From contig OZ250172.1 in the NCBI GenBank assembly GCA_965237905.1, forward strand, positions 2,624,001-2,688,000: a DNA stretch of 64,000 nt, in the 5' to 3' direction. The stretch is from Nitrospinaceae bacterium (GTDB taxonomy: Bacteria > Nitrospinota > Nitrospinia > Nitrospinales > Nitrospinaceae). Both the position numbers and the translations under genes were made by a program. Shown here one piece after another: positions 29,295-47,722 of this stretch (within the stretch, counting starts at the first letter, position 1; the number at the start of each line of letters is the position of its first letter). The notes below the pieces were generated by a model, which saw only the letters and a program-made list of their open reading frames with translations, had not been told where the DNA came from and ran no database searches.

Positions 29295-29313
29295 AATATT
29301 ATATAGTATTAAA
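29293..29313. repeat. Left att junction (AT core + aatattatatagtattaaa)
   Basis: The arm is the exact reverse complement of 47702-47720. Confidence 0.93.
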
Positions 29314-29455
29314 ATGATTAAGCTCAGCCTCTTAAACCGCAGGTCATACTGTGAAGTTGTTTTTGGCGTGGAGAAAAAATTAATTCGTAATGCTTTATAT
29401 TTCAATATCTTATGAGCTCACTTTTTATAAAAAAATGATCGAAAACTCTTGAGCT

Positions 29456-29493
29456 TGATATAATGTAGTGGAAGTCATGCAGTACTACATTAT
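29456..29493 (+). promoter_or_regulatory. Extended -10 promoter overlapped by a palindromic operator-like site
   Basis: TG-A-TATAAT at 29456-29464; ataatgtagt-N14-actacattat at 29460-29493. Confidence 0.5.
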
Positions 29494-29648
29494 GTTCGAC
29501 AAAGGGTCTGCTCCACCCCAATTACACCAGCATTGAGATTGGTGAATCGTGACTAGTGAAGCCGGTTGAGGATAAATAAGCCGGACACCACGTCTGGGGT
29601 AGCCCCACAACGTAACATTTGAGCTTAAAACCATAAGTCGGGCTGAAC

Positions 29649-29724
29649 AAAAAACCGGCTCTAGGTGAAGCATCTGCATTGGATTGATCTTCTTTGCGTA
29701 TGCAGCACCTAGAGCCGGTTTTTT
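29649..29724. terminator. Long hairpin with A/T tails (bidirectional terminator or attenuator-like)
   Basis: Perfect 19-bp stem aaaaaaccggctctaggtg / cacctagagccggtttttt. Confidence 0.65.
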
Positions 29725-29768
29725 ATTCACCCAACAATCTATTTATCACTTATTGAAAGGACAAGACA

Positions 29769-30338
29769 ATGAACAACTTAAAGCAGGCTGGAAATAAAAA
29801 TATTCACTTGGTACGGACATCTCCAGATCAATACAAGGGAAAAATAGGGGAAAGTTGGAGAAAAACCCTAAAGGGCATTTTGGAAACGGCAAAATTATTG
29901 GTTGAAGCAGAACTCCATCTCCATAAGGAAGACTGGAATGCACTTCTAGAAGATGGGTTACCATTTCACCGGACCATAGCCTACAAATTGATTAAGGTAG
30001 CAAAGGATAGCCGAATTAACGATCCTGCACATGTGCATCTGATGCCCTCGTCTTATGGAACTTTATATGAAATTGCCAAATTGAAGGATGAGGAGTTTGC
30101 CAAAGCAAAAGAAAGCCATGTATTAAATTCCAAGGTTCAGCGAAAAGACATAATCTCCTTTATAAAGAAAGAAAGAGGACTTGAGAACAAACCAAAAACT
30201 AACCAAACTTCGGGCAAAAAAATTGCGGAATTGTTTGTGGACGAAGAAAAGGTAGATCCCTTAAAAGCACTGAAGAAATTAGCAGAAGTTTTCGCGGAAA
30301 TGGATGGAGTTCATATAAAATACATTCAGGCTAAATAA
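29769..30338 (+). CDS. DUF3102-like mobile element protein
   Basis: ILETAKLLVEA...WNALLE..LPFHRTIAYKLIKVA...LYEIAKL resembles DUF3102; aagga RBS. Confidence 0.65.
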   Translation: MNNLKQAGNKNIHLVRTSPDQYKGKIGESWRKTLKGILETAKLLVEAELHLHKEDWNALLEDGLPFHRTIAYKLIKVAKDSRINDPAHVHLMPSSYGTLYEIAKLKDEEFAKAKESHVLNSKVQRKDIISFIKKERGLENKPKTNQTSGKKIAELFVDEEKVDPLKALKKLAEVFAEMDGVHIKYIQAK

Positions 30339-30450
30339 TTGGCAAAGCGATCAAGGGGTCCTGTAATTAGAAAGGACCCCCTAATCCAATATATTGTGTG
30401 GAATCCATTGCTAATTTAAACTCGAATATTTACACACTTTTTTTACAAAA

Positions 30451-32178: not shown

Positions 32179-32328
32179 ATCAAGTTAAATCCTCTATGAT
32201 CTATTCTTTTTTTGGCCTGATATTATGGGTTACTCCAAAACGAATCTTCTTTTAATCCAAGATAATCAAATCATACATGGTAGGCACATGTGCCACGAAT
32301 CTTAGGAGATTAAATCAAACCTAACAAC

Positions 32329-32398
32329 AGCTGGTCTGGTAGTAGTAGCTAGTCTGGTAGTAGTAGCTGGTCTGGTAGTGGTAGCTGGTCTGGTAGTA
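32329..32398. repeat. Tandem repeat, 4 x 18 bp (agctggtctggtagtagt), iteron-like
   Basis: Units start at 32329, 32347, 32365 and 32383 (last one partial), with at most one mismatch each. Confidence 0.9.
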
Positions 32399-32625
32399 CC
32401 AAATGGTAAGGTAATAACATCCAGTTTGTTAGGAGTGGGAATACCTATTTTTACCCTTTTTGTCCTTTTAATTTAAATTACAAGTGGCACACGTTCCATT
32501 GTTATATAATCTGGGTAATTATGCCCTCGTCGATGATAGCATTTAGAGCTGTTAGCAGAAAAGAGGTAATGGTCAAAGGCAGAAGGTCTAACTTTATGTA
32601 GGGTGCAGCTTAAAGGGGCAGGTTA

Positions 32626-33015
32626 TTAGTTGCGATTATATTTTTTTATGATTCTTCTTACCCCGGTTTTAGTCCATCTTTTCCCCCTAATAGTTGGAAT
32701 ACAAGCTTCGGCATCTAACCAATCAGCAATCCTCTCTAAGCTAAACTCTTTCTCCAATAATGGCTCCATTTCTTTCCATACTTTTTTTTGATACTCTTCC
32801 GCTTTTTTAATTTTTGCTTTCCTTGCAGCAGAGGTATCTTTATTCCTGACTTGGTCTAGATTAGGGTTCCCTAGTTTGATCCCCCTTTTTTTCCTCTCTT
32901 CTAAAGCAGCCTTGGTGCGCTGAGAGATTAATATTCGTTCTTCTTCCGACTTCCTAGCCATTCCGGTTAATACCCTATAAGGTAATTTATCAAATTTCTG
33001 GATACCCTTTAGCAC
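32626..33015 (-). CDS. Truncated serine-resolvase-like protein (C-terminal half only)
   Basis: EERILISQRTKAAL...GIKLGNP and SLERIADWL...RGKRWTKTGVRRI; no N-terminal YxRVS catalytic domain. Confidence 0.75.
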   Translation of the reverse strand: MLKGIQKFDKLPYRVLTGMARKSEEERILISQRTKAALEERKKRGIKLGNPNLDQVRNKDTSAARKAKIKKAEEYQKKVWKEMEPLLEKEFSLERIADWLDAEACIPTIRGKRWTKTGVRRIIKKYNRN

Positions 33016-33104
33016 AATGATACCCCATGGATTATAAATTATACTGGGAAAACCAAAACCTCAGAAGGAAAATAAATTCTTAACCTTTTAGCACAATGAT
33101 ACCC
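33008..33104. repeat. 18-bp direct repeat tttagcacaatgataccc x2 in the divergent promoter region
   Basis: Copies at 33008-33025 and 33087-33104. Confidence 0.8.
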
Positions 33105-33176
33105 TTGATCTTATAAATATAATTAAGGGGTTTTCAGAGTTGAATTTTGGGTGTCACTAATCGAAAGGGTATTTGA

Positions 33177-33788
33177 ATGAATTATTCGGTATTAAAAAAC
33201 CCGGAAAAGAGGAGTTTTTTCCGCCGTCAAATGGAGGAAAGATCTGAAAAATGGTTTAGAAATTACACCAAAAACCCAAAGCATCTTCTCGCCAACATGT
33301 TGCGGGGCAAGAAGTTTGATTATTTTGTCACTCCAACATTGAAAGGCTTCCGAAAGCATAACTCTATCTGTCAAACGATGGATAAACAAGATCTAACCAG
33401 AGATCAGGTGGAGCGAGTTGTTGGGCATTTTAGAAATATCCTAAAGAAGAAATTATATGGTCGTGGTCCATTCCGTATAAATTTCGTTGCAATCATTCAT
33501 ATGGAAACTGACCACCCGAATGTTCATATATTGATGGGTGAGCCGGATCAAAATTCGAACTTTAAAGGAAATGTACCGTTTGAAGTACTTATTCGAGAAT
33601 GCTGGAATAAGATCAAAATAGCGGGAAAAATTATTGACGTTAAAAGGATTTGGGAAGATGAAGATTTGGATGGCTGTTTACTCTCTTCAGAAGAAACAGT
33701 TTTTTATTATATGATGAAGGAAATTAAAGCCTGGAATGGAAATTTGGATAACGTCTGCTTTCTGAGTATGAATTTAGTGGAAAACTGA
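33177..33788 (+). CDS. Putative HUH-superfamily replication initiator/relaxase-like protein
   Basis: Motif I-like FVTPTL, motif II-like HPNVHIL, motif III-like YYMMK. Confidence 0.55.
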   Translation: MNYSVLKNPEKRSFFRRQMEERSEKWFRNYTKNPKHLLANMLRGKKFDYFVTPTLKGFRKHNSICQTMDKQDLTRDQVERVVGHFRNILKKKLYGRGPFRINFVAIIHMETDHPNVHILMGEPDQNSNFKGNVPFEVLIRECWNKIKIAGKIIDVKRIWEDEDLDGCLLSSEETVFYYMMKEIKAWNGNLDNVCFLSMNLVEN

Positions 33789-34105
33789 AACTGAGAACCT
33801 TTGTGTGCGATGCACCATTTGGAAACGGAGTTAAAGCTCCAAATTCTGGTTCCTTTAAATATTGGGTACGATTTGAAGAGTATTTAATAATGCTCTTGTT
33901 AAAATACCTACGTCTAAATTAGGTTCATAAGAACTACATTTCCCCAGTTTCCTAAATCACAAATCTCTAAAACCTTTTTAAATATATAAAACCACATGTT
34001 TCTTTTAATAATAATGAGTTAGAACAATTTGGACCTTGAGTTCTGAAAATAAATATTTTAATTTATTTAAAACCTAAGAATTTAAAAATATTTTTGAGGG
34101 TTAAA

Positions 34106-34702
34106 ATGGCCAAACAAGGTAAAGCTAAAGTTCTTAGTGAGCAGGAATTCAAGAGGGTGGTTCGTCATCAAATTACCGCAAAACATGGGCTCAGAAATGT
34201 TGCACTTTTGCACATCTCCTTTTATCTAGGCCTACGAGCCAAGGAAATGGCTTCCCTAAAAATTTGTGATGTCGTTGACTCCACCGGGAATTTAAAGGAG
34301 GAGCTTACCCTCACAAGAGAAATGACAAAGGGTAATCAAAGCAGAGCTATTTATCTCACAAATCCAAAAGTAAGAAAGGCCCTCCAGGAATACATTGAGC
34401 ATAGGAAAAATATCGAAGGAACCTATTTTCATGAAGCCTCATTATTTCGAAGTCAAATTTCAGGAAAGTTCTCTCCAAATACAATGCAACTGCTTTTCTC
34501 AAATATGTATAAAGACGTGGGCCTTGAGGGCGCATCAAGTCACAGTGGACGAAGAAGTTTCGCAACCAAGTTATTGGAGCAGGGTGTGAATATTAAATCG
34601 GTTCAAACTCTACTTGGTCATTCCAGTATCATGACCACATCCATTTACGTAGAGGACAATCCTTATTTATTGGCGAACATCTCACGGAATTTGAAAATAT
34701 GA
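34106..34702 (+). CDS. Small tyrosine recombinase (catalytic domain only)
   Basis: GLRAKEM, TKG, SHSGRRSFAT, LLGHSSIMTTSIY; 198 aa. Confidence 0.92.
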   Translation: MAKQGKAKVLSEQEFKRVVRHQITAKHGLRNVALLHISFYLGLRAKEMASLKICDVVDSTGNLKEELTLTREMTKGNQSRAIYLTNPKVRKALQEYIEHRKNIEGTYFHEASLFRSQISGKFSPNTMQLLFSNMYKDVGLEGASSHSGRRSFATKLLEQGVNIKSVQTLLGHSSIMTTSIYVEDNPYLLANISRNLKI

Positions 34703-34720
34703 TAATTTAATTAGGCCTAA

Positions 34721-34975
34721 ATGTATTGTGTCACAAAAACCTATGGTCATTATGTGAGAGATAGAATTGAACCCGCCCTCCATGACTGGTTGAGAACAAA
34801 AATAAAAGGAAACTATGAGATTAAGGAAAACGAACTTGATCCCAAAACAATGACTCGAACCATAACGGTTGGTTTTGAGGAAAAAAATGATTGTCAAAAA
34901 TTTTCACTTTTAAGAATACCAGTCGATTTATTCAAAGAGAAGTGGGGTTATGGAGAAATGGGGAGTTCATTATGA
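34721..34975 (+). CDS. Hypothetical protein
   Basis: 84 aa ORF directly after the recombinase. Confidence 0.5.
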   Translation: MYCVTKTYGHYVRDRIEPALHDWLRTKIKGNYEIKENELDPKTMTRTITVGFEEKNDCQKFSLLRIPVDLFKEKWGYGEMGSSL

Positions 34976-35078
34976 ACGAGTTTCTTAGCGACTATGCATT
35001 TGTGCCCGATCTTAACATTAACTCTGGGCCCGTGTTTAGGGGGAAGGTCAATACTAAAATAATTCAGACACCAAAGGC

Positions 35079-35561
35079 TTATGGTTTGCTTTCGTATGCC
35101 TCTTTGACCTTAGGGACTGCTTCCCTGACAGCAGAGAGGATTACCAGGCTATGACATAATAAAGGTTCACTCCGTTGGGGCGCGAACCAATAGTTGTTGA
35201 ATTTACCGCCATGGAAAAGATTATTGCGGATACGGCGAATATACAATAGAAGTTTTTCGGAAGGAGAATTTGTATTTGGTTCAGATATCTCCCAATCTAA
35301 TTTACCACCAATAATTACTTGTTTTTTTGGCGGATCAGCCAAAATAAACTTAATCGCTTCATCTAATTCTAAAGTGGTTGGATTAACGAATAGTTTTTTA
35401 ACTTCAGGTTTACGCGAAAACTTTGTCCAGTCTGCTTCGACAAAACCCCTAACAATTTTGTAATAAGGATTAACTTTTAAGGCATATTCGGTTCGGGAGA
35501 ATTCTTTAAAGAATCGAAATGCTAATTTATCAAGGTGTTGGTCTTGTGTCATTTCATGCAA
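35079..35561 (-). CDS. HEPN-domain protein (putative RNase)
   Basis: RxxxxH motif in IRNNLFHGGK. Confidence 0.7.
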   Translation of the reverse strand: MHEMTQDQHLDKLAFRFFKEFSRTEYALKVNPYYKIVRGFVEADWTKFSRKPEVKKLFVNPTTLELDEAIKFILADPPKKQVIIGGKLDWEISEPNTNSPSEKLLLYIRRIRNNLFHGGKFNNYWFAPQRSEPLLCHSLVILSAVREAVPKVKEAYESKP

Positions 35562-35838
35562 TATGAATGAGGCTGGGGCGCATTTTTCATGTTAGGAGAA
35601 CCTCCCTAAACCTGAATTCCATATGTTATAGAAAATGGAAGTAATAATCTACTCCGTCTGATACCTTTTCCTGCCCATAATCCCCTACTTAATCATCCTA
35701 GGTTTTAGGTCCGAATCCTACCCTTACTTTTGGACCACTTTGCGGGGGGCAGGTCACAATTGCAAAACCACCTAAATCATGCTAACTCTATGTTTGTAAA
35801 AATATTACATCCAATATCTACATGTATTTTGGTGAAAT

Positions 35839-37119
35839 ATGAGAAGACTTGCTGTCCAAAAACGGGATGATGGATATTCCTCCAACAAAGACTATCAACA
35901 ATTTCACAGTAAGGTATCTCAACGTATAGTCCCGGGAGAAAAGGAAAATCGTATAGTATTTACCACAGAACTACAAAAATTGGATGTAAGTAGTGATTTT
36001 GTAGGATTTGGTGGATTTATTTTAGCAGAAGATCCGATCGTACTAAAACTGACTATCCAGATTGATTCTTATGAAGATTCGAAAGAGTTTCAAATTGGAA
36101 CAATTTGGAACCGAATTGGGATAGCTATACCAGCAACTAAAGATGAACGTGCAACTCTAATTATGGAATGGGAAAATGTTACAAGTATAAATGTATGGGG
36201 TTTTGATTTAGGTTATCTTAACCTTCCTGAAAGTATTAGAAATAAGAAACCGGATATTGATGTTCTTAATGAATCACATTTATGCCCTGAAACTTTTTAT
36301 CTACCAAATCAAAATGCAATAGACTTAGATATAGAGGAATCTTCATCTACCCATTTTTCGATTGTTAACGGGTCAGAGATAATATTAAAGAAATGTTCAT
36401 ATTGTCAAAGAATGTTGCCAGTTAATCCAGAATTGCTTGGATCGCTATCTTTCCATAAACATAACGCAAAATTAACTAAACACCAAAATGAATGTAGATC
36501 ATGTAAGAAATGGCGTATAAATAATAGTTTTAATCCTTTAAGAACCACCGATCAATTACATGAGTCATCTGTCATTACACGTGAGCGTAAGATTTTACTT
36601 AAGGAACCAAAGATTCTACAAGAAATAAAGGATAGAACAGGGGCTGGATTAAAATCTCAAATCTGGAAAAAATTTGGGCGCAAATGTTTTTTCTGTAATG
36701 AACCAATTGAGCTAGATGGATTTCAGCTAGACCACACACGACCACTTTCTTACTTATGGCCAATTGACGAACATGCCACCTGTTTGTGCCCTGAACACAA
36801 CAACCAAAAGAAAGATAAATTTCCTATCGAATTCTACACAGAAGATCAATTAAAATCTTTATCAGAAATAACTGGACTAAGTTATGAAGAGTTAACAATT
36901 AAAGATGTGAACCAAAAAGAATTAGATCGAATCATTTCTAATATATCTACTTTTGCAAAAGAATGGGACCCACGTACTTTTGCAGCAATTGCAAGAAAAA
37001 TAAAAGAGTTGAGAAAAAATACAGATCTCTTTATAATTTTAAATGAAGCTGACGAAGAGACATATACTGAATTAGTACAACAACTGGAAGACCGTCCAGA
37101 TCCTGTCGTAAATGAATAG
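35839..37119 (+). CDS. HNH endonuclease, probable restriction enzyme
   Basis: CFFC...LDHTRP...CPEHNNQK HNH core, extra CSYC...CRSC zinc finger; convergent with the MTase. Confidence 0.85.
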   Translation: MRRLAVQKRDDGYSSNKDYQQFHSKVSQRIVPGEKENRIVFTTELQKLDVSSDFVGFGGFILAEDPIVLKLTIQIDSYEDSKEFQIGTIWNRIGIAIPATKDERATLIMEWENVTSINVWGFDLGYLNLPESIRNKKPDIDVLNESHLCPETFYLPNQNAIDLDIEESSSTHFSIVNGSEIILKKCSYCQRMLPVNPELLGSLSFHKHNAKLTKHQNECRSCKKWRINNSFNPLRTTDQLHESSVITRERKILLKEPKILQEIKDRTGAGLKSQIWKKFGRKCFFCNEPIELDGFQLDHTRPLSYLWPIDEHATCLCPEHNNQKKDKFPIEFYTEDQLKSLSEITGLSYEELTIKDVNQKELDRIISNISTFAKEWDPRTFAAIARKIKELRKNTDLFIILNEADEETYTELVQQLEDRPDPVVNE

Positions 37120-37124
37120 GTTTA

Positions 37125-39851
37125 TTATTTTGACGGTTTAAAAAATAATAGTGAATGTGTCGTCGTTAATCCTTTATCCTTTATCCCATGTTTAGCAACT
37201 GTCTGCACATTTTCAATCACTTCACCTTCTAGGGTGAAATATTCAAGAGCTATTGCTTTTAATTCATTAACCATGTCTTTTCTACCTCCGCCACCGAGGT
37301 GAAGAATTAGCAATCCATTCTTTTTTATCATACTCTTGCATAGTGAGAAGAATTCCCTATAAACAGAAATATTCTTTATTTGCTGCCTTTCCAAAAACTC
37401 TAAACTATCTTCTTTAAAATTGCTTTCACTCCAGCCACAAAACCAAAGTCTTAACCAATTAGGACGATCAAACCTCATACCATAAAATGGCGGTGATGTT
37501 ATTATTGCATCAAATTTATGATTGATATGGTTTTTTATATCTCTAAAGTCACCATGAATCCCTAACCCTTTTTGAAATTCTTTTGACAAGGGTTTTGATA
37601 AAGCTCTCTCGGCTCGTTCATATATTTTTTTGTATACATCTTTATATACTTTTGGACCCGAAGGAGAGAAGGGTGTTATAGGGTGTGATGTACATGATAG
37701 CGCATACGGTCTATTGCCATGTAAAACATGCAACAACGAGGCCCAAACAAAATTCTCGGAATCTGACCTTTGATCTAATTTCTTTTTAAGAAAGATCTTT
37801 CTAAGTTTTAGGATCTCCTTTAGTGTTTTTTTGTGGTAATAATCCTTAACCGATGAATTTAAACCAAATTCTGCAAAATTAAAATCATTTTTAGTAAGGT
37901 TGACTTTTGATGCTTCCTTTTGGAGTTTTTGAATGGATTTTCTAACGTTCGACAGAAATGGTGGACGTAACTTTGCCCGTCCTATTAAAGCCGCAAATGG
38001 ACTTTTATCATTGGTGACAACATTTACACCTTGCATAGCCCCCTCAAAAGGTATTGTTCCAACACCTCCTAGGGGATCTAAAAGACTTCCTCCTTTCGGG
38101 ACGAAATACTTAACAAGCCAATGAGACATTGATGGTTTTAGTTTGCCTTGATATGAACAAAGAGAATGTAGAGGATGACCCCAAGTTTTTTTTGAGTATG
38201 GTTGATTCTTGTAAGGTAATTCTCGCTGAAATTGCTTAATTCTTCCCCCTAAAGAGTCACATTTTTTGCTTAATGCTTTTATATGTCTTACGTTCTTGGG
38301 CTTCTCAAAGATTATTTCTGCTTGAACAAGCTCACTTTTATCCCGAGACATTCTTTTTGCTAATATATGTTCGTTTTTTACATTAAAACCAGCTTCTCTA
38401 GCAACATCAATAAGTAGCTTATTTGTAGGAACATGTACACCATAAAACTTAGAGTCTCCTATGTCTAAAACGAAATCACCGCCGGGTTTCATACTGTTAA
38501 AGACACCTTTAAATACTTCATACATATCAGAGAAATAATGACGAGCCATTGTGGGAATTCGTTTGTCTTTTGATTCTAAATCTAGTTGTTTTGCTATCTT
38601 TTCAACTTTTTTAAAATCAAAATAAGATTCTTTTTTCGAGACATCATTTATGCCTCCAGTCACAGTTAAATTTCGGTATCCCCTAAGTTCTTTTTCAGAT
38701 TTAATAAAACCTAAAAGCCAAAGCTCAATTTTTGTATTTCTAAAGTAATTTGTACCGTTCAAATAGGGTGGTGATGTCAGAACTAGATCAAAAGCATTTC
38801 TATACTCATCCGGAATTGATTTAGAGTCTGAGGACACTTTTTTTGTATAAGCTATATTCGTTGGTGAGGATTTAACATCTTGTACCATCCTTTTTACACT
38901 ATCGGATATTAAGCCTGAAACATTGACAACTCTATTTTTGTATTCATCTGGTCTTCTGCGACGTAAGTCAGCTCGTCTAGTCATGTTTGAACATGCAACT
39001 GCATTAGATGTACATGCCAGCATTAATATATTACAAGCATGTTGGTAACCGTCTGATATATCCTCCGCAATGCTTAATGCAGCAAGTAACTCTCGAATGT
39101 GCTTATCTTCAAAATAGTCTCTTTTAGGGAATGCCTCATAATATTGTTCAAGCGATACCCTTTTTCTTGCCTTTACCAAATTATTTTTATCTATAACCTT
39201 TAAATATTCAGTTGCTATCGAATTAAACTTATTCCAATTCTTTTTTGCCCATCTTACAGATAAAATCTTTGTCTCAGCAACAAAGGACATAAACGGATTT
39301 AGCTCAGAGTAAAATGATTGAATCCCTAACATTGAAGCAGCTAGTTGTACGGTTCCTGATCCACCAAAAGGATCATATATGGTTTGGGGTCTAAGGCGGT
39401 TTCTAAGAATACTGTCTCTTGCATATGTTGCGGAGAATCCTTCTACATACGGGTACCACCCATATATACCTTGTCTTAAACTATCTTGGAATGTCAAACC
39501 AACTGATGTTTCACCTTCGTTTGTGATTTGCATATCAACAGTTCCAAAATCGAAAGACATTTGACCATTTCCATTTTTGCGTCCGTTGTTAAATCCTTTT
39601 TTTAATATAGAGACACAAATATTACTAAGACTTCTACTTTCCTCATGAGCCTTTGCTTCTAAATCTTCAACAATTGGATCGCCTAAAGCTAATCGAAAAT
39701 CACGACTATTAAGTCCTCTAAGATATGTAATAAATTCTTTGGTTATCCCATCTCTAGGCTTAGCCGGTAAGCTAATGTTGACCCTAGCGGATTTGCCAAT
39801 ACGAACACGTTCCTTAGGGAAATAAATGGTTTTGAATATATATTCTGGCAT
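37125..39851 (-). CDS. Tandem double amino-DNA methyltransferase with N-terminal ribbon-helix-helix-like domain
   Basis: Two motif sets: YDPFGGSGT...TSPPY and LDPLGGVGT...TSPPF; start set at MPEYIF. Confidence 0.88.
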   Translation of the reverse strand: MPEYIFKTIYFPKERVRIGKSARVNISLPAKPRDGITKEFITYLRGLNSRDFRLALGDPIVEDLEAKAHEESRSLSNICVSILKKGFNNGRKNGNGQMSFDFGTVDMQITNEGETSVGLTFQDSLRQGIYGWYPYVEGFSATYARDSILRNRLRPQTIYDPFGGSGTVQLAASMLGIQSFYSELNPFMSFVAETKILSVRWAKKNWNKFNSIATEYLKVIDKNNLVKARKRVSLEQYYEAFPKRDYFEDKHIRELLAALSIAEDISDGYQHACNILMLACTSNAVACSNMTRRADLRRRRPDEYKNRVVNVSGLISDSVKRMVQDVKSSPTNIAYTKKVSSDSKSIPDEYRNAFDLVLTSPPYLNGTNYFRNTKIELWLLGFIKSEKELRGYRNLTVTGGINDVSKKESYFDFKKVEKIAKQLDLESKDKRIPTMARHYFSDMYEVFKGVFNSMKPGGDFVLDIGDSKFYGVHVPTNKLLIDVAREAGFNVKNEHILAKRMSRDKSELVQAEIIFEKPKNVRHIKALSKKCDSLGGRIKQFQRELPYKNQPYSKKTWGHPLHSLCSYQGKLKPSMSHWLVKYFVPKGGSLLDPLGGVGTIPFEGAMQGVNVVTNDKSPFAALIGRAKLRPPFLSNVRKSIQKLQKEASKVNLTKNDFNFAEFGLNSSVKDYYHKKTLKEILKLRKIFLKKKLDQRSDSENFVWASLLHVLHGNRPYALSCTSHPITPFSPSGPKVYKDVYKKIYERAERALSKPLSKEFQKGLGIHGDFRDIKNHINHKFDAIITSPPFYGMRFDRPNWLRLWFCGWSESNFKEDSLEFLERQQIKNISVYREFFSLCKSMIKKNGLLILHLGGGGRKDMVNELKAIALEYFTLEGEVIENVQTVAKHGIKDKGLTTTHSLLFFKPSK

Positions 39852-40048
39852 TAGGAAGTTCTCTATCACAATTATTGTGATATTATAAATTATCAACTTC
39901 AAATTCACGACAGAAATTTACGAAACCCTCTTAATTCATGAAATTTGTGTCTGTCAATAAATATGGGTTTGGCGGCCTCCGGGGCCTAAAAGCATTAAGT
40001 CCAGCCAATTTCCCCGTCTAAAACCCTGTTATCACCTTTTAAAAATGA

Positions 40049-40083
40049 AAACGGCGACCCCAACTAATAAGGTGGTCGCCGTT
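40049..40083 (-). terminator. Rho-independent terminator downstream of the tRNA fragment
   Basis: aacggcgacc...ggtcgccgtt stem followed by a T-rich tract on the minus strand. Confidence 0.6.
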
Positions 40084-40109
40084 AACTTATTGCCCCTAAA
40101 GGGCTTATT

Positions 40110-40154
40110 TGATGGGCCATCACGGGATCGAACCGTGGACCTACTAGTTAAGAG
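40110..40154 (-). pseudogene. 3' half of tRNA-Lys(CTT), relic attachment site
   Basis: Minus strand ctcttaa-ctagtaggtc-cacgg-ttcgatc-ccgtg-atggccca-tca: anticodon loop, T-arm and 3' acceptor strand; D-arm and 5' acceptor strand absent. Confidence 0.85.
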
Positions 40155-40245
40155 CTCTAACTTTGTTAATTTTGGATGGACTTTAGAAATACTGATTGTG
40201 TATCAGATGGTTGTATTTTTTTTCTTTCTTAACCTCATTGACATA

Positions 40246-41652
40246 TTACGCCAAAAGTGATTTTGCTTCTTCAGATTTTTGTTTTAGGTAATTATGTAGT
40301 TCCTTCAAGAGTTTCAACTCGTTTCCATCAGATTGCTCTATCAATTCTTCTGTTTGATTGATGGCTTGAGGTAAGGTCAACCAGGGAACTTTTCCATCAG
40401 CCTCCAAAACCCTTCTAGCGAAAGACTTATCAAGTTTTAGACGATTATTTTTTGATAAAACTTCTGGTTTTTCAGAATAAATTAAACGCATACCAAGTTT
40501 TTTTAGTCTTTTGTCTTTTATCTTGCTTAGATGGTATTCTCGATCGGCCCAATCAATTTTATGAAAAGTTTCCATTTGATCCTGATCTTCCCAAGAAGGG
40601 AAGCTATCATAAATTTGATCTTCAACATGGTCGGAGGGTTCTTTTATTTTACGAGTACCCATAAATATTGAAATTAACTTATCTTTTAATTTTGTGTTTC
40701 CATGTAAATATTTGGCCCTACGTTCTAATTCTTTCCTATCTAACTCATAGGACTTCATGTAATCAGGCGCATCATCCAAAGATAAAATTATTGGAGAAGA
40801 GTTTGTCTTTAGTATTCGAATAGGTTTTGGTTGAGAAAGTATTTTTTCCTCTAATTCATCTTCGCTCAAATCCTCAAGATCCTTCGGGTCTACTGATAGA
40901 TTAAAAACTAGCATATCTGTATTCATAGAAGGATTCAAACCTATCCCCGTTACAACCCAAGAGATTCCTTTCCTCCGAAAGAACTCTGAAAAAATAAACA
41001 GAGATTCTTCTTTAATGAATTCAATCACAGCAGCTTTATTTCCGAATTGCATAAAATTTGACCAAATATTTGGGGCGTGCTCAGAGGCTAATCTGCATAA
41101 GTGAAGGGTGGCTTCAGCATCCGCCATCGCCTCATGTGCTCCTTCATGACTAAAACCGTTTGCAGGGGCTAGTTGATCTAGTTTGAAAATACTATTCCCT
41201 TTTGCATCAGTTGGGATATTTAGAGCGTTAAGGGAAAAAATACTTATCGCTTGAACTATTTTCATACTATCAGAACGACAATTATTGTTTGTGTTTGTGA
41301 GATATGGTGGATGCAGTGTTTTGTATAAAGCTTGACGCAATAGATGTTCATCAAAACCCAAAGAATTATGGCCAATAAAAACAGATGGCGACCAAGCCAT
41401 AAGCTTTTCGCGAATAGACAGTAACATTTCGTAATGAGAAGGCAAAGATGGATCGGTAAATTGCTGAACCGAAATTTTTGTAACTTTAATTGCACCAGGA
41501 GACGGTACTACATAGGGAAGCAAGCGTGAGCGGCACTCAAATCTATCTATCTCATTAAGATCTGCATCAGTCTTGATTGCGGCAAATTGTAAGATTTGGT
41601 CAAACGAAGTATTTGTTCCAGTAGTTTCAGTATCGTAGAAAACAAAGGCCAT
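40246..41652 (-). CDS. sbcB: Exonuclease I-like 3'-5' ssDNA exonuclease (DEDDh)
   Basis: YDTETTG, QFAAIKTD, GHNSLGFDE, FKLDQLA.ANG, AHEAMAD; ggagg RBS. Confidence 0.9.
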   Translation of the reverse strand: MAFVFYDTETTGTNTSFDQILQFAAIKTDADLNEIDRFECRSRLLPYVVPSPGAIKVTKISVQQFTDPSLPSHYEMLLSIREKLMAWSPSVFIGHNSLGFDEHLLRQALYKTLHPPYLTNTNNNCRSDSMKIVQAISIFSLNALNIPTDAKGNSIFKLDQLAPANGFSHEGAHEAMADAEATLHLCRLASEHAPNIWSNFMQFGNKAAVIEFIKEESLFIFSEFFRRKGISWVVTGIGLNPSMNTDMLVFNLSVDPKDLEDLSEDELEEKILSQPKPIRILKTNSSPIILSLDDAPDYMKSYELDRKELERRAKYLHGNTKLKDKLISIFMGTRKIKEPSDHVEDQIYDSFPSWEDQDQMETFHKIDWADREYHLSKIKDKRLKKLGMRLIYSEKPEVLSKNNRLKLDKSFARRVLEADGKVPWLTLPQAINQTEELIEQSDGNELKLLKELHNYLKQKSEEAKSLLA

Positions 41653-41672
41653 AAAAACCTCCAAAAGATACT

Positions 41673-42188
41673 TTAACCTAATAAATTTCCCAAACGAAAG
41701 CGCATAGCCGATTTGCTAACCTTAAATTGGATAGCAAGTTTGTTTAATTCTTCATCCTTATCAATATCGATACCTTTTCCGCCAAGAGCTTCTTCAATAA
41801 ATTTTTTAGGCATTAGAAGTTCTGCGGCAAAAGAATTAGCTTGTATCTCTATTCCATTTATTCCCGCAGAAGATATTGAATCTCGCATAAGCATAGGAAA
41901 TTCTTTATCAACATGTATTCCGTCGGAAATTTCATTTTTGTGAAAAATCAAATGACCAATTTCATGTGAAATTGTAAATCTTTGCCTATTAGGGTGATGT
42001 AATGAATTTACTCCTATAATTGGGCAACCATTTTTAAAGAAAATCATTCCTGAAATTTCATCGTCTAGAGGAGAATATCGCAGTTTTGCTCCTAGCTTTT
42101 TTGCAATGCGATCAACAGGAACAGGACCATAAACCACATTATATTCATCTAACAATTGTTTAGCACGATTTTCGAATTTTGTGGCCAT
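41673..42188 (-). CDS. ImmA/IrrE family metallopeptidase (CapP-like)
   Basis: RQRFTISHEIGH, EIQANSFAAELLMP; aggag RBS. Confidence 0.92.
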   Translation of the reverse strand: MATKFENRAKQLLDEYNVVYGPVPVDRIAKKLGAKLRYSPLDDEISGMIFFKNGCPIIGVNSLHHPNRQRFTISHEIGHLIFHKNEISDGIHVDKEFPMLMRDSISSAGINGIEIQANSFAAELLMPKKFIEEALGGKGIDIDKDEELNKLAIQFKVSKSAMRFRLGNLLG

Positions 42189-42226
42189 ATTACTCTCCTT
42201 ATACATGCTTAAGACTCAATTGCACC

Positions 42227-42556
42227 TTAAGCATCTCTAATAATTTTAAATATTGCCTGCTTCTGTTCTTCTGTTAAATCTTCGTCCTTATGCAATCGAA
42301 AGGAAGACACTGAGGATTTTGATGGTGTAAATTTTTCTATGGGGGGTAAGAGCTTGTCCAATGAATCAAGATTTAACACTTGAGCAATGCAATAAAGGCG
42401 GTGGGTCAATACATGCTGTCTCCCGGCTTCAATATTTGCTAAAGATGCCCGAGAAATTCCAATTTGATCAGCAAGTTGACCTTGTGTAATGTCCTCACTT
42501 TTACGAATTTTTTTTATTTTTTGTCCAACGAGGAGTGAAAATTTGTCAGGTTCCAT
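42227..42556 (-). CDS. XRE-family HTH repressor (CapH-like)
   Basis: GQKIKKIRK..ITQGQLADQIGISRASLANIEAG. Confidence 0.92.
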   Translation of the reverse strand: MEPDKFSLLVGQKIKKIRKSEDITQGQLADQIGISRASLANIEAGRQHVLTHRLYCIAQVLNLDSLDKLLPPIEKFTPSKSSVSSFRLHKDEDLTEEQKQAIFKIIRDA

Positions 42557-42561
42557 AACTC

Positions 42562-42666
42562 CTTATACTAGTAAACACAGGATATGTCAAGCAAGCAAAC
42601 AATTTGTTTGGGATACAAACATATATATTTTTTTTATATTGACATCTGGCAGCAGATTGATATGCT
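42562..42666. promoter_or_regulatory. Divergent sigma70 promoters and candidate operators between the regulator operon and CBASS
   Basis: + strand TTGACA(42639)-16-TATGCT; - strand TTGACA(42590)-17-TATAAG; palindromes caaacaa-t-ttgtttg, tgtttg-N5-caaaca and atctg-N4-cagat. Confidence 0.65.
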
Positions 42667-42753
42667 CACAGATAAGTAATGGCACCACGTTTCTCGGAAT
42701 CAGCTATTTATCCTGGTTGATCCGACCTGAATCCAAAATAGGAGGCAATAATC

Positions 42754-43767
42754 TTGAAGGAAGGGGTAGAAGAAACTGGACATCCGAAGCGGCGTATCCT
42801 ATGCATCGATGGGGGCGGCATCCTCGGTACATTCCCTGCGGCCTTTTTGGCCGAACTGGAGCAGCATCTCGAACACCCGATCGGTTCGTACTTCGACCTG
42901 ATTGCGGGAACATCTACAGGCGGCATCCTCGGGATTGCCCTGTCCTTGGGTCTTCCCGCATCCGAAATTCTTGACCTTTACGAAAAACGAGGTCCAGAGA
43001 TTTTCGGCCAGGATCATGGTGCGCTTATAAGTTTGATTTTAAGGAAAATTCGCGGTTTCCGGCAGCTATACAGACGCAAATATGATTCCGATGCGCTTCG
43101 TTCCGTTCTAAAGGAAGTTTTGGGTACCAGGCGTATTGGTGAAGCTCGGACCCGACTGGTTGTTCCGGCTTGGAACCCAGTGGCTCAATCAGTTTACATT
43201 TATAAGACCGCACATCACCATCGCCTGAAAACAGATTACCGATCGTTCGCCGTCGATGCTGCACTCGCCACGTCTGCAGCGCCGACCTATTTCCAGCATC
43301 ACATCACGCAAAACGATGTTGGATTGCTTGACGGGGGAATCTGGGCGAATAACCCGATCGCCATAGCCGTAGTGGAGGCCATTGCCGTTTTGGGTTGGCC
43401 TCGGGAATCATTGCAAATTTTAAGCCTTAGCTGTTTGGATGAAGCCTACTCAATCCCGAAATGGGTGGGAGTTGGCACACTCGGATTGAAAATCCGCAAT
43501 CTATTTATGGACGGCCAGTCGAAAGGCGCTATGGGCATCGCCAAGCTACTCACAGGCCATGAACATGAACGCAAAGCCATTTACCGGATCAGCCACACAA
43601 TCCCATATAACGCCTTCAAGATGGATGACACGCGTGTGATTCAGGACCTGAAAGGTCTCGGGCATACCATGGCTCGTGATAGGAACCCTGTTCTGGAACC
43701 CGTATTTTTTGACAAACCGGCGAAAGAGTTCACGCCGATTTACCAACTTAATGAGGAATCGCAATGA
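42754..43767 (+). CDS. capV: CBASS patatin-like phospholipase effector
   Basis: DGGGILG, GTSTG, SAAPTYF, DGGIWANNP; adjacent to the CD-NTase. Confidence 0.92.
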   Translation: MKEGVEETGHPKRRILCIDGGGILGTFPAAFLAELEQHLEHPIGSYFDLIAGTSTGGILGIALSLGLPASEILDLYEKRGPEIFGQDHGALISLILRKIRGFRQLYRRKYDSDALRSVLKEVLGTRRIGEARTRLVVPAWNPVAQSVYIYKTAHHHRLKTDYRSFAVDAALATSAAPTYFQHHITQNDVGLLDGGIWANNPIAIAVVEAIAVLGWPRESLQILSLSCLDEAYSIPKWVGVGTLGLKIRNLFMDGQSKGAMGIAKLLTGHEHERKAIYRISHTIPYNAFKMDDTRVIQDLKGLGHTMARDRNPVLEPVFFDKPAKEFTPIYQLNEESQ

Positions 43768-44963
43768 CAATTGACACAGAAAAATACAACAGATTTTTGG
43801 ATAGCGTTGCGGAAGAAATTGATATACCGCCGAGCAAATATCAGGATGCGGTTGAGCGCTACCAGTCCGTCGGAAAGTGGCTGGAGGCAGGTGAGTACTT
43901 AGAATCTTCCGGCAAGCCAAGCATTTACCCGCAAGGCTCTTTTCGCCTGGGAACGGTGGCCAGGCCTATAAGGGGCGGCGTCGAGGCAAGCTATGACATT
44001 GATCTTGTATGTGAGTTGCCGATCGAAAAAAAACGGACCGACCCGTATTCGATCAAGACTATGGTCGGTGATCGCTTACGCGAGCACGGCACATATCGCA
44101 AATTGCTTGACAAGGAAGGTAAGCGATGCTGGACGCTCGAATACGCCGAAGAGGATGAGGTTGGCTTTCATCTGGACGTTCTGCCATCCGTCCCGGATCA
44201 AAAGGGTCTTCTAGATACCTCTATTGCCATCACCAATAAACAAGCAGGAGTCTACGATTGGTCTTCGAGCGATCCGAATGGCTTTGGGCTCTGGTTTGAT
44301 CGCCAGAATCGGGCGGCGTTCGAGGTCGCCCTGATCGAACAAAAGCGATCCATTCAGGAGCGGATGCCCAATCTTTATGGGAAAGTTGACGACGTTCCAG
44401 ACCAACTCGTCCGCACGCCCCTCCAAAGGTCGATTCAGCTCATGAAACGTCACCGTGATGTGAAGTTTAATGACGCACAGTATAATGGTTACGCGCCGAT
44501 CTCGATCATCATTACGACCTTGGCTGCGCAGTTTTATCAGGATGAGCCGGATACCTTTTCGGCGCTGACCAGAATTATCGACCAACTCCATGAGCATGCG
44601 GTTCTTGTTGAAAATGGGACCGTGAACAAAGCTCTCGCGCCCTTCAGTCCTATTAAACGCACGTCTGACGGAAAGTGGTACATAGGCAATCCGGTCAATT
44701 CAGATGAGAATTTCGCCGACCGCTGGCACGAGGATAAACATGCACGTGCGAGGGCCTTTTTCTCTTGGGTGGCTGCCTTAAAGGAGGACCTCATAAACAT
44801 TTTGGCTGAAACACGTCCTGATGTCATGCGCAAACGACTTACCGCTGTGCTTGGTGCGGCTGTTGTGTCTGGTCATCTCGACCTGATCTCACCAGCCCAG
44901 GCCGCCGTGGTCAGTGCCCCAAGTATTCATATCTCGGGAGCAGCTAAACCCTGGAGGGCATGA
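43764..44963 (+). CDS. cGAS/DncV-like nucleotidyltransferase (CD-NTase)
   Basis: YPQGSFRLGT, YDIDL, FHLDVLP, KRHRD, NPVN..ENFADRW. Confidence 0.95.
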   Translation: MTIDTEKYNRFLDSVAEEIDIPPSKYQDAVERYQSVGKWLEAGEYLESSGKPSIYPQGSFRLGTVARPIRGGVEASYDIDLVCELPIEKKRTDPYSIKTMVGDRLREHGTYRKLLDKEGKRCWTLEYAEEDEVGFHLDVLPSVPDQKGLLDTSIAITNKQAGVYDWSSSDPNGFGLWFDRQNRAAFEVALIEQKRSIQERMPNLYGKVDDVPDQLVRTPLQRSIQLMKRHRDVKFNDAQYNGYAPISIIITTLAAQFYQDEPDTFSALTRIIDQLHEHAVLVENGTVNKALAPFSPIKRTSDGKWYIGNPVNSDENFADRWHEDKHARARAFFSWVAALKEDLINILAETRPDVMRKRLTAVLGAAVVSGHLDLISPAQAAVVSAPSIHISGAAKPWRA

Positions 44964-45713
44964 GTGAAGGAAGAACTCTCCGCCCAAATCGCCGAGCTAC
45001 AGACGGTTCATACGGGTCTGACAAAAATCGCGGAGAAGGATAACGAAACTGTCGTTTCCGGACCGTTGCCGTTCAAGGCATCGGCTGACGGGCTTAGCCC
45101 AATTACCGAATGCTTTGAGATAGAATTAATCATCCCCAATAAATACCCGAAGATCCTGCCGCGTGTTAGGGAAACCGGTGGGAAAGTCGACGGCGATTAT
45201 GACCACCTCTATAAGGATGGAACGCTCTGTCTAGCTGTCCCGATCGAGGAGCGCAGGAGATTTGGAGAACAACCCACCCTTCTAGGTTTTATAAACAAAC
45301 TGGTAATTCCCTATTTTTTTGGCTACTACTACTGGGAAAAAAACGGCAAATATCCTTTCGACGAGCAAGCCCATGGCCCCGATGGGATTGTCCGGCATTA
45401 TATGGATTCCCTCCATCTACCGGATGAAATCTCAGCTCTGGCTGTCGTTTCCTACCTTCTTGAGTATGGCTATCGCGGTCATCATTTATGTCCTTGTGGA
45501 AGCAGCGAAAAGGTTCGAAATTGCCATGGCAAAGCATTACACGACCTACATGAACAGCACAATGAAATCACTTTAAAAAATGATTTCTTGTCGGCGCTGG
45601 ATGTCTGCATCAACAAAGTAAAAGAGGACAAACTTAAAATTCCTGAATCCCTTAAAAGACAGGTTCTTCGAATTTACAATAAGATCAAAAACAAAATCTT
45701 CGATGTTGACTAA
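44964..45713 (+). CDS. Prokaryotic E2-like protein with C-terminal SEC-C motif (E2-only CBASS ancillary)
   Basis: IPNKYP..LP.V...HLYKDGTLCL E2 core with Cys; CPCGS.EK.RNCH SEC-C motif. Confidence 0.82.
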   Translation: MKEELSAQIAELQTVHTGLTKIAEKDNETVVSGPLPFKASADGLSPITECFEIELIIPNKYPKILPRVRETGGKVDGDYDHLYKDGTLCLAVPIEERRRFGEQPTLLGFINKLVIPYFFGYYYWEKNGKYPFDEQAHGPDGIVRHYMDSLHLPDEISALAVVSYLLEYGYRGHHLCPCGSSEKVRNCHGKALHDLHEQHNEITLKNDFLSALDVCINKVKEDKLKIPESLKRQVLRIYNKIKNKIFDVD

Positions 45714-45756
45714 CAGAGTTGGGTCTTATAATTAATAATATATAATATAATAATTT

Positions 45757-45954
45757 ATGGCCATCTTCATCCCCCACAGATGCCCGATATGCTTCGAGAG
45801 CGTGACGCTGATACTGCCGCAGCATAAGGGTGGTGCGTTTAAGGGTACAGCGAAGGGGCAGTGTTTAAATTGCATGGATGAGCAGGAACACGATTTAACT
45901 GTCCCCGCCAATAGGAAAGATTTAATCAAAGTCAAAGGACCAGAACGGCAGTAA
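45757..45954 (+). CDS. Small putative zinc-finger protein
   Basis: CPIC...CLNC in 65 aa. Confidence 0.5.
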   Translation: MAIFIPHRCPICFESVTLILPQHKGGAFKGTAKGQCLNCMDEQEHDLTVPANRKDLIKVKGPERQ

Positions 45955-46062
45955 CCGCGATCAGGAGAATTTTAGAGAGGACCAATCACCCAAAGCAGAC
46001 GTTCGCCTAACGGCTTCGACCGGCAGGAACCGGCCATAAGCGGACATTTACCCATATGCGGA

Positions 46063-46347
46063 TTATTCATCAATAAATTCATTTGCTGGAGATTTGATAA
46101 AATCACTACTCAATGGGAAATATGCTCGTAGACCTCCATCATCTATGCATCCGTGAACTCTAATATCACCATCAGGTTTATCGTCCCAATGAGTGATGAT
46201 TTCAATATGGTATTTCTTACCATCTTTTGATGTTACTTCCCTGGTAACAGGTTCTTTTTCGATATTCTTTTGTAAATCTTGATGAGAAATAGGACGGAAT
46301 AATTCTAATTCATTTTCAAGTAATTTAATTGCTTCTTGTTTATCCAT
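46063..46347 (-). CDS. Hypothetical protein (cassette-like gene)
   Basis: 94 aa AT-rich ORF tightly bounded by repeats. Confidence 0.75.
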   Translation of the reverse strand: MDKQEAIKLLENELELFRPISHQDLQKNIEKEPVTREVTSKDGKKYHIEIITHWDDKPDGDIRVHGCIDDGGLRAYFPLSSDFIKSPANEFIDE

Positions 46348-46505
46348 AAGTTTTTCAATTTCCGCTTTAGGTCGTTTTCAGATTAAGTAATATTTCGGCC
46401 ACAAGCGGACACTTGCCCAAGCACAAGAAACCCCGCTCTAGTCGGGGCCTCATCTTGGTCCTCGGTTCTTCTTGTTATGCGCTGAGTCGAGGGGAAGGGC
46501 GGACC

Positions 46506-46994
46506 TTATCTGGACCTGTGCGCTTCCAGCTCGATCTCGATCATGAACCCGGGCAGGGCGAGCCCTTTGACCTCGAGCCAGGTTCCGGTCGGAAACTGCT
46601 TTGTGTAGATCGAGTTACGATACGAAGCGACCTCGAGAAACTTCGCCATGTTGGTCGTATAGACGTTCTCAACTATCACGTCGTCGAAGGTATAGCCGTA
46701 GTGCTTCAGAACCTTATCCAGATCGGAGTAAGCGTTTTTCATCTGCTGCTCCAAATCGCCGACAGCTGTCGGGTTGCCCTCATCATCCATGCTCACGGCG
46801 CCCGAGATCTTGATGTCATCACCGATCTTCACGGCATGCGTGTAGCCGTAGGCCTTTTCGACCTCCGGTCGCAAAAGGAAATACTCCGGCATTTCTTTCG
46901 CCAGCACGATCGTCTCGTCGGATTCCGGGCCGGGGCAGCCGGACAGGAAAGCCAGGAAGAGTGTTGCAAGGACGAGCAGTGATTTTTTGTTCAT
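46506..46994 (-). CDS. RidA/YjgF family protein with export signal
   Basis: YTHAVK.GD.IKISG, VIVENVY, WLEVKGLA.PGFMIEIE; lipobox-like LSGC; aggag RBS. Confidence 0.85.
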   Translation of the reverse strand: MNKKSLLVLATLFLAFLSGCPGPESDETIVLAKEMPEYFLLRPEVEKAYGYTHAVKIGDDIKISGAVSMDDEGNPTAVGDLEQQMKNAYSDLDKVLKHYGYTFDDVIVENVYTTNMAKFLEVASYRNSIYTKQFPTGTWLEVKGLALPGFMIEIELEAHRSR

Positions 46995-47160
46995 TGTTTT
47001 TCTCCTCAGATTTGTCAAACGGCCGCTTTGGGTCGTTTGCGGGCTAACGATCAGCGCGATCGAACGTCCGCTTTCCGTGCTAACTGTTATGACTCATCGT
47101 CTGTCCACAATAGGATTTCTTCTTCAAAAATCCCCCACCCGCTCCACCAACTCCGGTTGG

Positions 47161-47613
47161 TCATTCAACCGGACACCACCCCACCCTTGCTCCGCCGTGA
47201 TACTCCCTACCAAGTCCCTGCTGGATGATCTTCTCTGCCAGATTGTCCCCGCTGGTCAGCTTCACGTCCGCCACTACTCGACCGGCGTACTTCCCATGCT
47301 TGACGTTTGCCAGTAGCACCACCTCACCCAAGATCAGCCCTTTCACGAAGTCGCGTGCTTCAATGGCCTTCTGTTTCTCAGATTCACACTTTCCACGGAT
47401 TTCAGGAGTATCCACGCCATTAACCCGGACGCTGGCCTTTGCTTCCAGACCGGGCCACGGGTAGGCTTCCACCGTGAACGTGTCGCCGTCATAGACCTTT
47501 ATGACCTTGGCGGACACCGGGCCAGTAATGGCGGGATCAGCCCATGAGGTAACGGGGGCCAGGAGAAGGCATACGGCAAGAATCAGGATCGGGATTTTGT
47601 TCGGAGTATCCAT
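47161..47613 (-). CDS. Thermonuclease (SNase) family protein
   Basis: VIKVYDGDT, VRVNGVDTPE, KYAGRVVA; signal peptide. Confidence 0.9.
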   Translation of the reverse strand: MDTPNKIPILILAVCLLLAPVTSWADPAITGPVSAKVIKVYDGDTFTVEAYPWPGLEAKASVRVNGVDTPEIRGKCESEKQKAIEARDFVKGLILGEVVLLANVKHGKYAGRVVADVKLTSGDNLAEKIIQQGLGREYHGGARVGWCPVE

Positions 47614-47701
47614 ACCCGAAACTATACACCGATTGGTGATTATTCGGACACCATAAAAAGGCCAGCAGAGAGAGCCGTTTTCTGGTTGAATATACCTTTA
47701 A

Positions 47702-47722
47702 TTTAATACTATATAATATTAT
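47702..47722. repeat. Right att junction (tttaatactatataatatt + AT core)
   Basis: Exact inverted copy of 29293-29313. Confidence 0.93.

Follow-up and report, generated by a model that had tools for sequence, protein, structure and literature searches.

An exonuclease I gene as third member of a GAF-less, CapH/CapP-like control cassette that faces a CBASS operon in a Nitrospinaceae bacterium

Why should a gene for a single-stranded DNA (ssDNA) exonuclease stand third in line behind a repressor and a peptidase that face an antiphage operon? The question is raised by a locus in a 64,000-nucleotide (nt) stretch of the genome of a Nitrospinaceae bacterium (contig OZ250172.1 of assembly GCA_965237905.1, positions 2,624,001 to 2,688,000; the whole stretch is called the window below). 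There, genes for an XRE-family helix-turn-helix (HTH) repressor, an M78 zinc peptidase and a member of the exonuclease I (ExoI) family are divergent from an antiphage system that signals by cyclic oligonucleotides (CBASS). The answer developed here is that the HTH-peptidase-ExoI trio is a conserved and portable control cassette of the CapH/CapP type. The best model for its third gene, to which a probability of about 0.45 is given, is that ExoI grips ssDNA as a partner of the peptidase and stands in for the GAF domain that the peptidase lacks, while the nuclease of ExoI damps the signal. The six genes, all confirmed as real, are the following (aa, amino acids):

40246-41652, minus strand: ExoI/SbcB-family 3'-5' ssDNA exonuclease, 468 aa (RNase_T and Exonuc_X-T_C; PADLOC RTasSbcB, 1.3e-106)
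41673-42188, minus strand: M78 (IrrE/ImmA/CapP-type) zinc peptidase, 171 aa (Peptidase_M78; PADLOC capP, 1.3e-33)
42227-42556, minus strand: XRE-family HTH repressor, CapH-like, 109 aa (HTH_3; PADLOC capH, 3.8e-11)
42754-43767, plus strand: CapV-type patatin phospholipase effector, capV (CBASS_lipase above cut-off)
43764-44963, plus strand: CD-NTase, 399 aa (PADLOC cyclase, 8e-115)
44964-45713, plus strand: stand-alone E2-like protein (PADLOC E2, 5e-79)

Within the trio the gaps are 38 nt (HTH to peptidase) and 20 nt (peptidase to ExoI), and ExoI starts at an ATG downstream of GGAGG. The first-pass annotation of the window had read off these genes, the sizes of the HTH protein and the peptidase, the spacing of the trio and an intact DEDDh nuclease site, all of which is borne out by open reading frame (ORF), family and alignment data; so is the CapH/CapP-like layout that it recognised, an HTH gene and an M78 peptidase gene opposite a defence operon. 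Against the NCBIfam sbcB model ExoI scores 227 bits, below the equivalog cut-off of 260.

How regularly ExoI accompanies the pair was followed mainly in metagenome loci, the best 80 of 178 relatives retrieved with a peptidase alignment built on eight trio members, a sample biased towards the trio through both query and ranking. Of the 74 informative loci (six further contigs end too early), 63 have ExoI directly behind the peptidase; once peptidases more than 90% alike are merged the figure is 55 of 66, and an HTH gene precedes the peptidase in all 70 loci with enough DNA. On plasmids the seven best peptidase matches adjoin the seven best ExoI matches. Recurrence of ExoI beside HTH-peptidase pairs was the check that the first-pass annotation had set for its proposal, and in both collections ExoI does recur. 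When the search is started from ExoI, 7 of 16 genome loci are trios; among 401 alphaproteobacterial genomes the ExoI family is present in 30, with four of the 30 loci being trios, one of them the seed. A quick tree of 71 ExoIs places all 45 trio ExoIs, the window's among them, in one group of 47 rows together with two solo copies (95 in the SH-like approximate likelihood-ratio test). Over 40 loci the distances among the peptidases correlate with those among the ExoIs (rho 0.58, 0 of 2000 permutations), which shows long co-inheritance and not contact, shared descent alone being sufficient for it.

What the cassette faces is far less constant. The scan for this took in 149 minus-strand ORFs upstream of the HTH gene at 41 loci where 900 nt or more of DNA precede it, five near-duplicates, the window locus and seven plasmid loci read from their annotation being kept apart; the 35 trios among the 41, with five plasmid trios, make up 40 trio loci. 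Opposite 31 of these are ubiquitin-like (Bub/Bil-type) genes (at L036 by weak matches), opposite five a CD-NTase or CBASS-type effector, opposite two a TIR gene and opposite one DUF2188/DUF3892, the remaining one having no assigned type; defence-type families are thus found in 39 of the 40 facing operons. The two TIR trios (L001 5910-9002 and L067 1-1695) combine a ThsB-like TIR gene, a CBASS-type E2 and a SLOG-patatin fusion that is full in L001, and the TIR gene occupies the place where a CD-NTase would be expected. Beyond the 40, L157 adds an E2-CBASS and L160 a type III CBASS (TRIP13, HORMA, cyclase and NucC). Given this variety and the dominance of ubiquitin-like operons, CBASS is to be seen as swappable cargo. 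The circuit proposed at the outset was tied to CBASS, which faces some trios as a minority cargo. In the window it was presumably set behind a pre-existing cassette, because GC content at third codon positions differs between the two sides (0.20-0.29 in the trio genes versus 0.49-0.55 in the CBASS genes) and the operons opposite the nearest ExoI relatives whose cargo is known are ubiquitin-like.

If the trio controls what it faces, the DNA between the divergent genes should carry the means, and three candidate elements are seen there:

42562-42590, minus strand: trio promoter-like site, TTGACA (42590-42585), 17 nt, TATAAG (42567-42562), read by eye
42596-42621, either strand: operator candidate, palindrome TGTTTG-N5-CAAACA (42605-42621) with a half-site (42596-42601), between both -35 boxes
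42639-42666, plus strand: CBASS-operon promoter-like site, TTGACA at 42639, 16 nt, TG-TATGCT

A divergent dual-promoter region with a palindrome had been claimed earlier, and both promoter-like sites and the palindrome are visible. A promoter scan gave seven sites versus 13.1 expected by chance and missed the minus-strand site; being uninformative alone, it was replaced by conservation across loci. The set used has 55 upstream sequences, with the HTH start chosen by script, failed loci and two near-duplicates dropped, and some loci without ExoI included. TTGAC occurs 30-40 nt upstream of the HTH start in 51 of the 55 versus 1.1 in shuffles (at exactly 35 nt in 30), an opposite GTCAA further upstream in 33 versus 3.1, and a strict palindrome of the TGTTTG-N5-CAAACA type in 17 versus 0.4, contrasts that are somewhat inflated because the patterns were derived from the same 55 sequences. 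The conserved geometry suggests an operator between two -35 boxes. In the window the trio promoter-like site ends 5 nt upstream of the repressor ATG, and a Shine-Dalgarno-like word precedes the HTH gene in 2 of the 55 loci; the repressor mRNA is probably leaderless.

The peptidase of the cassette aligns with IrrE 82-183 and PprI 72-175, at which point its ORF stops. In PprI the HTH domain ends at 176 and the GAF domain begins at 177 (PMC10904395), so that peptidase and HTH domains are both present and only GAF is missing. The earlier description of a catalytic domain alone thus holds for the absence of the C-terminal sensing domain and fails for the HTH domain. AlphaFold2 models reach a predicted local distance difference test score of 81 and 86, with a low-confidence loop at 91-109, and the best fold matches of the first model are PprI, CapP and IrrE. 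GAF-truncated PprI(1-176) loses ssDNA binding and stimulation and retains basal cleavage (PMC10904395), and CapP contacts ssDNA mostly through GAF (10.64898/2026.05.16.725639). The zinc-site residues H75, E76, H79 and E114 are present in 92 of 92 peptidases (79 from trios and 13 without ExoI, near-duplicates included), as is R68, seven residues ahead of the first zinc histidine like the ssDNA-binding R90 of CapP. His92, in the low-confidence loop, aligns without gaps with the switch Cys113 of Thauera CapP and occurs in 79 of 79 peptidases from trios and 12 of 13 ExoI-less ones; it is a putative switch residue at the position of the CapP cysteine switch. For the repressor, an SSFRL stretch in its linker had been likened to a hydrophobic-Arg cleavage site, and CapH is indeed cleaved between F82 and R83 (Lau 2022, 10.1101/2022.04.27.489752). 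The window repressor carries F86-R87. As a conserved cleavage motif SSFRL has been abandoned: 1 of 72 repressors has FR in its linker, where LPLP is the consensus, with hydrophobic residues conserved at 86 and 88.

ExoI itself is, judged by alignment, an intact enzyme in the window, D7, E9, D101, H173 and D178 corresponding to D15, E17, D108, H181 and D186 of E. coli ExoI. The ssDNA anchor of the E. coli enzyme comprises R113, Y124, W128, R134, K214, N257, N304, Y368 and F371 (PMC3675492). Seven of the nine are identical in the window ExoI and in 38-40 of 40 trio ExoIs, the exceptions being W128, which falls in an alignment gap, and N257, which is variable. At the presumed pocket for the C-terminal tail of SSB (R148, Y207, Q311, R338), the aligned residues are not conserved. 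A patch at about 186-219 (C186, S198, F200, R202, F203, E216, F219) is typical of trio ExoIs, most of its residues being found in 0-13% of 15 solo relatives.

Not all trio ExoIs can be nucleases. Among 80 trio ExoI segments, duplicates included, 56 have all five catalytic residues and 18 are partial with the visible ones intact; five have catalytic substitutions and one is broken. The nuclease-dead copies form three types (L071/L075/P0003; L083/L094/P0028/P0036; L095), of which L083 and L094 are partial and the P proteins are known as proteins without gene context. Where the whole site is visible, three or four of the five catalytic residues are lost. The tree of ExoIs needs three changes to the dead state, two of them forced by starred branches, and members of the second type are 65-75% alike across the N-terminus. 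In dead ExoIs changes in conserved columns are concentrated in the nuclease domain (17/60, 22/60, 11/60 and 9/55, versus 4/37, 3/37, 0/37 and 0/37 elsewhere). All seven mapped anchor residues are retained in the four full-length dead proteins and, across the three types, wherever the sequence extends to them; the trio patch is largely retained in dead ExoIs at 197-203, and the neighbouring peptidases keep their active sites. As the dead copies keep the residues that anchor ssDNA, a non-catalytic role of ExoI is implied, and the pattern suggests that ExoI helps to sense or buffer the DNA-damage signal. One peptidase subclade has two nuclease-dead loci with upstream DNA (L075 3-1303 and L094 2-1615), and both face an HNH-SAVED effector gene.

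These observations can be assembled into a transcription switch that is portable and regulates itself. Its XRE repressor would sit on the palindrome between the back-to-back promoters and silence both the defence operon, here an E2-CBASS, and the trio itself; once ssDNA accumulates after DNA damage or phage infection, the GAF-less peptidase would cut the repressor, both repression and cleavage being carried over by analogy with known families. Alone the peptidase would hold ssDNA poorly, and it would need a partner because GAF is absent and PprI(1-176) loses ssDNA binding and stimulation. Co-expressed ExoI would grip ssDNA in its anchor groove and relay the signal to the peptidase, directly or together with RecA, a relay that would probably shift the His92 loop away from the zinc. 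Where ExoI is active, as in most copies including the window's, it would also digest ssDNA and so set a threshold and end the response. Contact between ExoI and peptidase, activation via ExoI and the histidine switch are all putative. A precedent is SbcB of V. cholerae, which has a role that does not depend on its nuclease and gives a signal with RecA in a two-hybrid assay (PMC11784430).

Several findings weigh against this model. A search with one dead copy returned 116 intact and four dead ExoIs (query included) among the 120 of 393 matches listed, so most homologues there are catalytically intact, and a dead ExoI could act as an ssDNA sponge rather than as an activator. ExoI is missing behind 11 of the 74 close peptidases, and the ExoI-less peptidases nest among the trio ones with eight changes on the tree, which points to repeated loss of ExoI and hence away from an obligatory role; the proposal of ExoI as a module component accordingly holds for a recurring third gene and not for an indispensable one. 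Behind more distant short plasmid peptidases ExoI was found at none of seven loci examined, and among 401 Pseudomonadota genomes it accompanies one of three close-clade pairs outside the seed genome. In the draft assemblies G610 and G195 the pair is present and ExoI nowhere, and in G610 the operon opposite the pair is still a ubiquitin-like one. In the seed genome the ExoI of one trio carries a frameshift. Peptidases without ExoI retain the HVD motif and R68 just as well (12-13 of 13), so the peptidase shows no ExoI-specific trait. In a weak test for a peptidase-ExoI fusion, 8000 longer candidates gave one match at E<=1e-20, not an ExoI fusion. In ImmA, moreover, the response runs via RecA or RapI (as cited in Lau 2022).

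The ExoI-less loci have been looked at from other sides as well. A search for ExoI remnants in 19 of them gave a best E value of 0.019 and nothing convincing, and replacement of the missing ExoI by a host sbcB was considered and finds no support in G610 and G195. At three ExoI-less loci the place directly behind the peptidase is taken by a DprA-like gene (L068 4019-4921), a DarT-DarG pair (L091 5602-7426) or a split dCTP deaminase (L063 1813-2993); two of these three act on ssDNA. One genome (G062) has a second trio with a frameshifted ExoI (L160 3717-10032) and, as L161, a third HTH-peptidase pair without ExoI.

A bolder form of the partner model, which is offered tentatively, is that of a split ssDNA receptor: the peptidase would have lost GAF, gained a histidine in place of the switch cysteine and recruited ExoI as sensing subunit, so that active ExoI reports ssDNA ends as well as erasing them and thereby serves as a timer, while three lineages would have turned it into a pseudo-nuclease that is purely a sensor. 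If so, phage proteins able to cap the ends of ssDNA or to block ExoI would make the signal last longer and induce defence.

The chief rival, doubtful in our estimate though the strongest of those considered, is that ExoI is purely a brake and that the peptidase is activated otherwise, by RecA-ssDNA as ImmA is, or by weak direct binding of ssDNA. Co-induced ExoI would digest ssDNA (dead copies would sequester it) and so lift the threshold and turn toxic defence genes off, and hosts without an sbcB of their own would have to bring ExoI along. The prevalence of active copies noted above fits this, as does the absence of a second ExoI in the window genome and in seven of the eight other trio hosts tested, the eighth having a second, frameshifted trio copy. 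The existence of ExoI-less pairs also matches an optional brake. At L016 (8376-11383) an ExoI belonging to the same family lies directly behind a DRT9-type reverse transcriptase, with neither peptidase nor HTH gene, and host ExoI is known to restrain DRT9 and DRT10 (PMC12483538; 10.64898/2026.04.29.721553). A pure eraser, however, should decay along its whole length, whereas in three types the nuclease has been lost with the anchor fully kept, and with it the patch, a state that persists in proteins only 66% alike; the brake also leaves unexplained how a GAF-less peptidase is activated.

It is improbable that ExoI is simply regulated cargo, a defence or repair enzyme induced to act on incoming or replicating ssDNA with no effect on the switch. 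The other defence-type genes found in its slot speak for that, but ExoI stays and tracks the peptidase while facing operons change freely, and dead yet conserved ExoIs could not degrade foreign DNA. Much less probable still is that ExoI makes an activating ligand (deoxynucleoside monophosphates or short oligonucleotides) for the peptidase to sense, one of the roles first suggested for it: the intact site of most ExoIs would allow it, yet it fits poorly with dead ExoIs adjoining peptidases with intact active sites, with a peptidase that has neither GAF nor other ligand domain, and with the requirement of PprI for ssDNA of some length (PMC10904395). Equally remote is the idea that the window trio no longer controls CBASS and is its neighbour through recent insertion, as the compositional contrast and the ubiquitin-like cargo of the nearest relatives might be taken to indicate, for the CBASS-facing promoter and operator candidates are intact with relative-like spacing and CBASS-type operons face other trios too.

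The locus is carried by an island, with these features:

29293-47722, strand not applicable: host island of about 18.4 kb, splitting comM (both halves on the minus strand)
29293-29313 and 47702-47722: att-like arms
30451-32178: large serine recombinase
32311-32432: array of about five 18-nt units between two recombinase ORFs
32626-33015: recombinase fragment
34094-34702: short tyrosine recombinase

The whole six-gene locus is gap-free on one contig in each of two runs from a single sample, which serves as an assembly check only because the sample may be the window's own source. With tblastn none of the six genes was found a second time in the host genome, and the peptidase was found in none of 60 related genomes searched at E<=1e-20. 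The nearest plasmid relative of the CD-NTase (47.5%) has no trio within its annotated 4 kb flanks. The window E2 has a C-terminal CPCGS...CHG motif that resembles SEC-C. Elsewhere in the island a convergent pair with ends 5 nt apart (35839-39851) encodes a 908-aa methyltransferase, with two methyltransferase regions and a weak N-terminal RHH match, and a 426-aa protein in which CxxC and HNH-like motifs can be read by eye and which matches no family in three libraries, probably together a type II restriction-modification system. Short stretches at 45757-45827 and 46987-47035 recur on further contigs of the single sample mentioned above, where 45812 is joined to 47018, and are possibly the ends of a small repeated element; a further att-like match at 45725-45754 is AT-rich and taken as chance. 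A gene for a 774-aa KAP-family P-loop NTPase (26040-28364) lies in a stretch of lower GC immediately downstream of the 3' half of comM.

What is at stake is by what means ImmA-type peptidases without GAF sense DNA damage and how such switches are turned off. Both questions can be put in vitro, since the cassette comes with controls from nature (ExoI active, dead or missing), an operator candidate and a residue predicted to act as switch; and because it almost always faces a defence operon it also marks new ones. To our knowledge there are three ssDNA-sensing regulators of bacterial immune operons (CapW, CapH with CapP, and CapK with CapS), each of which binds ssDNA itself. The ImmA peptidase is short, and we know of no exonuclease linked to ImmA/ImmR.

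In print, CapH/CapP pairs face CBASS and DUF2188 operons (Lau 2022, 10.1101/2022.04.27.489752), Bub operons (168/544; PMC11601596) and Bil operons (PMC10557695). The available portions of PMC11601596, PMC10557695, PMC13373217, Lau 2022 and Calloji 2026, with the supplements searched, make no mention of ExoI or an exonuclease, and in that of PMC9226505 SbcB is mentioned only for UG17. No paper joining ExoI to an HTH-peptidase pair was found, most subscription journals lying outside the search; this agrees with the first-pass annotation, which knew of no such component.

Compared with CapH and CapP (10.1101/2022.04.27.489752; 10.64898/2026.05.16.725639), the trio shares an XRE HTH gene and an M78 peptidase gene divergent from a defence operon, the HExxH...E site, an arginine at the ssDNA-binding position and a switch-loop residue 13 places past the second zinc histidine. 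It differs in having no GAF (171 versus about 288 aa), histidine where the switch cysteine sits (the cysteine switch being found in a third of CapPs), no conserved F-R cleavage site in the repressor, and ExoI as a third gene. Failing on GAF, the peptidase should not be filed as a canonical CapP, and some published CapP entries may be of this short form. IrrE/PprI with DdrO of Deinococcus (PMC10904395) gives the best fold and profile matches and the same peptidase-plus-HTH architecture, but PprI needs GAF for ssDNA sensing, has a repair regulon under its control and does not belong to a mobile cassette. ImmA with ImmR of ICEBs1 and phi105, compared by the description in Lau 2022, likewise brings peptidase and XRE repressor together on a mobile element and needs an outside activator; unlike the trio, whose facing genes in the window are for defence, it controls excision of the element and is activated via RecA or RapI. 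With E. coli ExoI/SbcB (PMC3675492) the window ExoI shares the DEDDh site, the three-domain layout and the anchor residues given above, at 26% identity, its own family being mobile, with a trio-specific patch and nuclease-dead members. The PADLOC RTasSbcB context does not apply in the island, among whose scanned ORFs there is no reverse transcriptase match, and is found at L016. In the restraint of DRT9 and DRT10 (PMC12483538; 10.64898/2026.04.29.721553) ExoI also sets the level of an ssDNA signal in defence; there, however, a host enzyme clears a reverse transcriptase product, whereas here a dedicated copy is part of a transcription switch. The facing operon has by family scans of ORFs the layout of E2-CBASS, or type II short (a class named after PMC12948482), with effector, CD-NTase and lone E2 and neither E1 nor JAB. 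The CapH/CapP-type switch itself is known, and what is new is a GAF-less version of it with ExoI as third gene.

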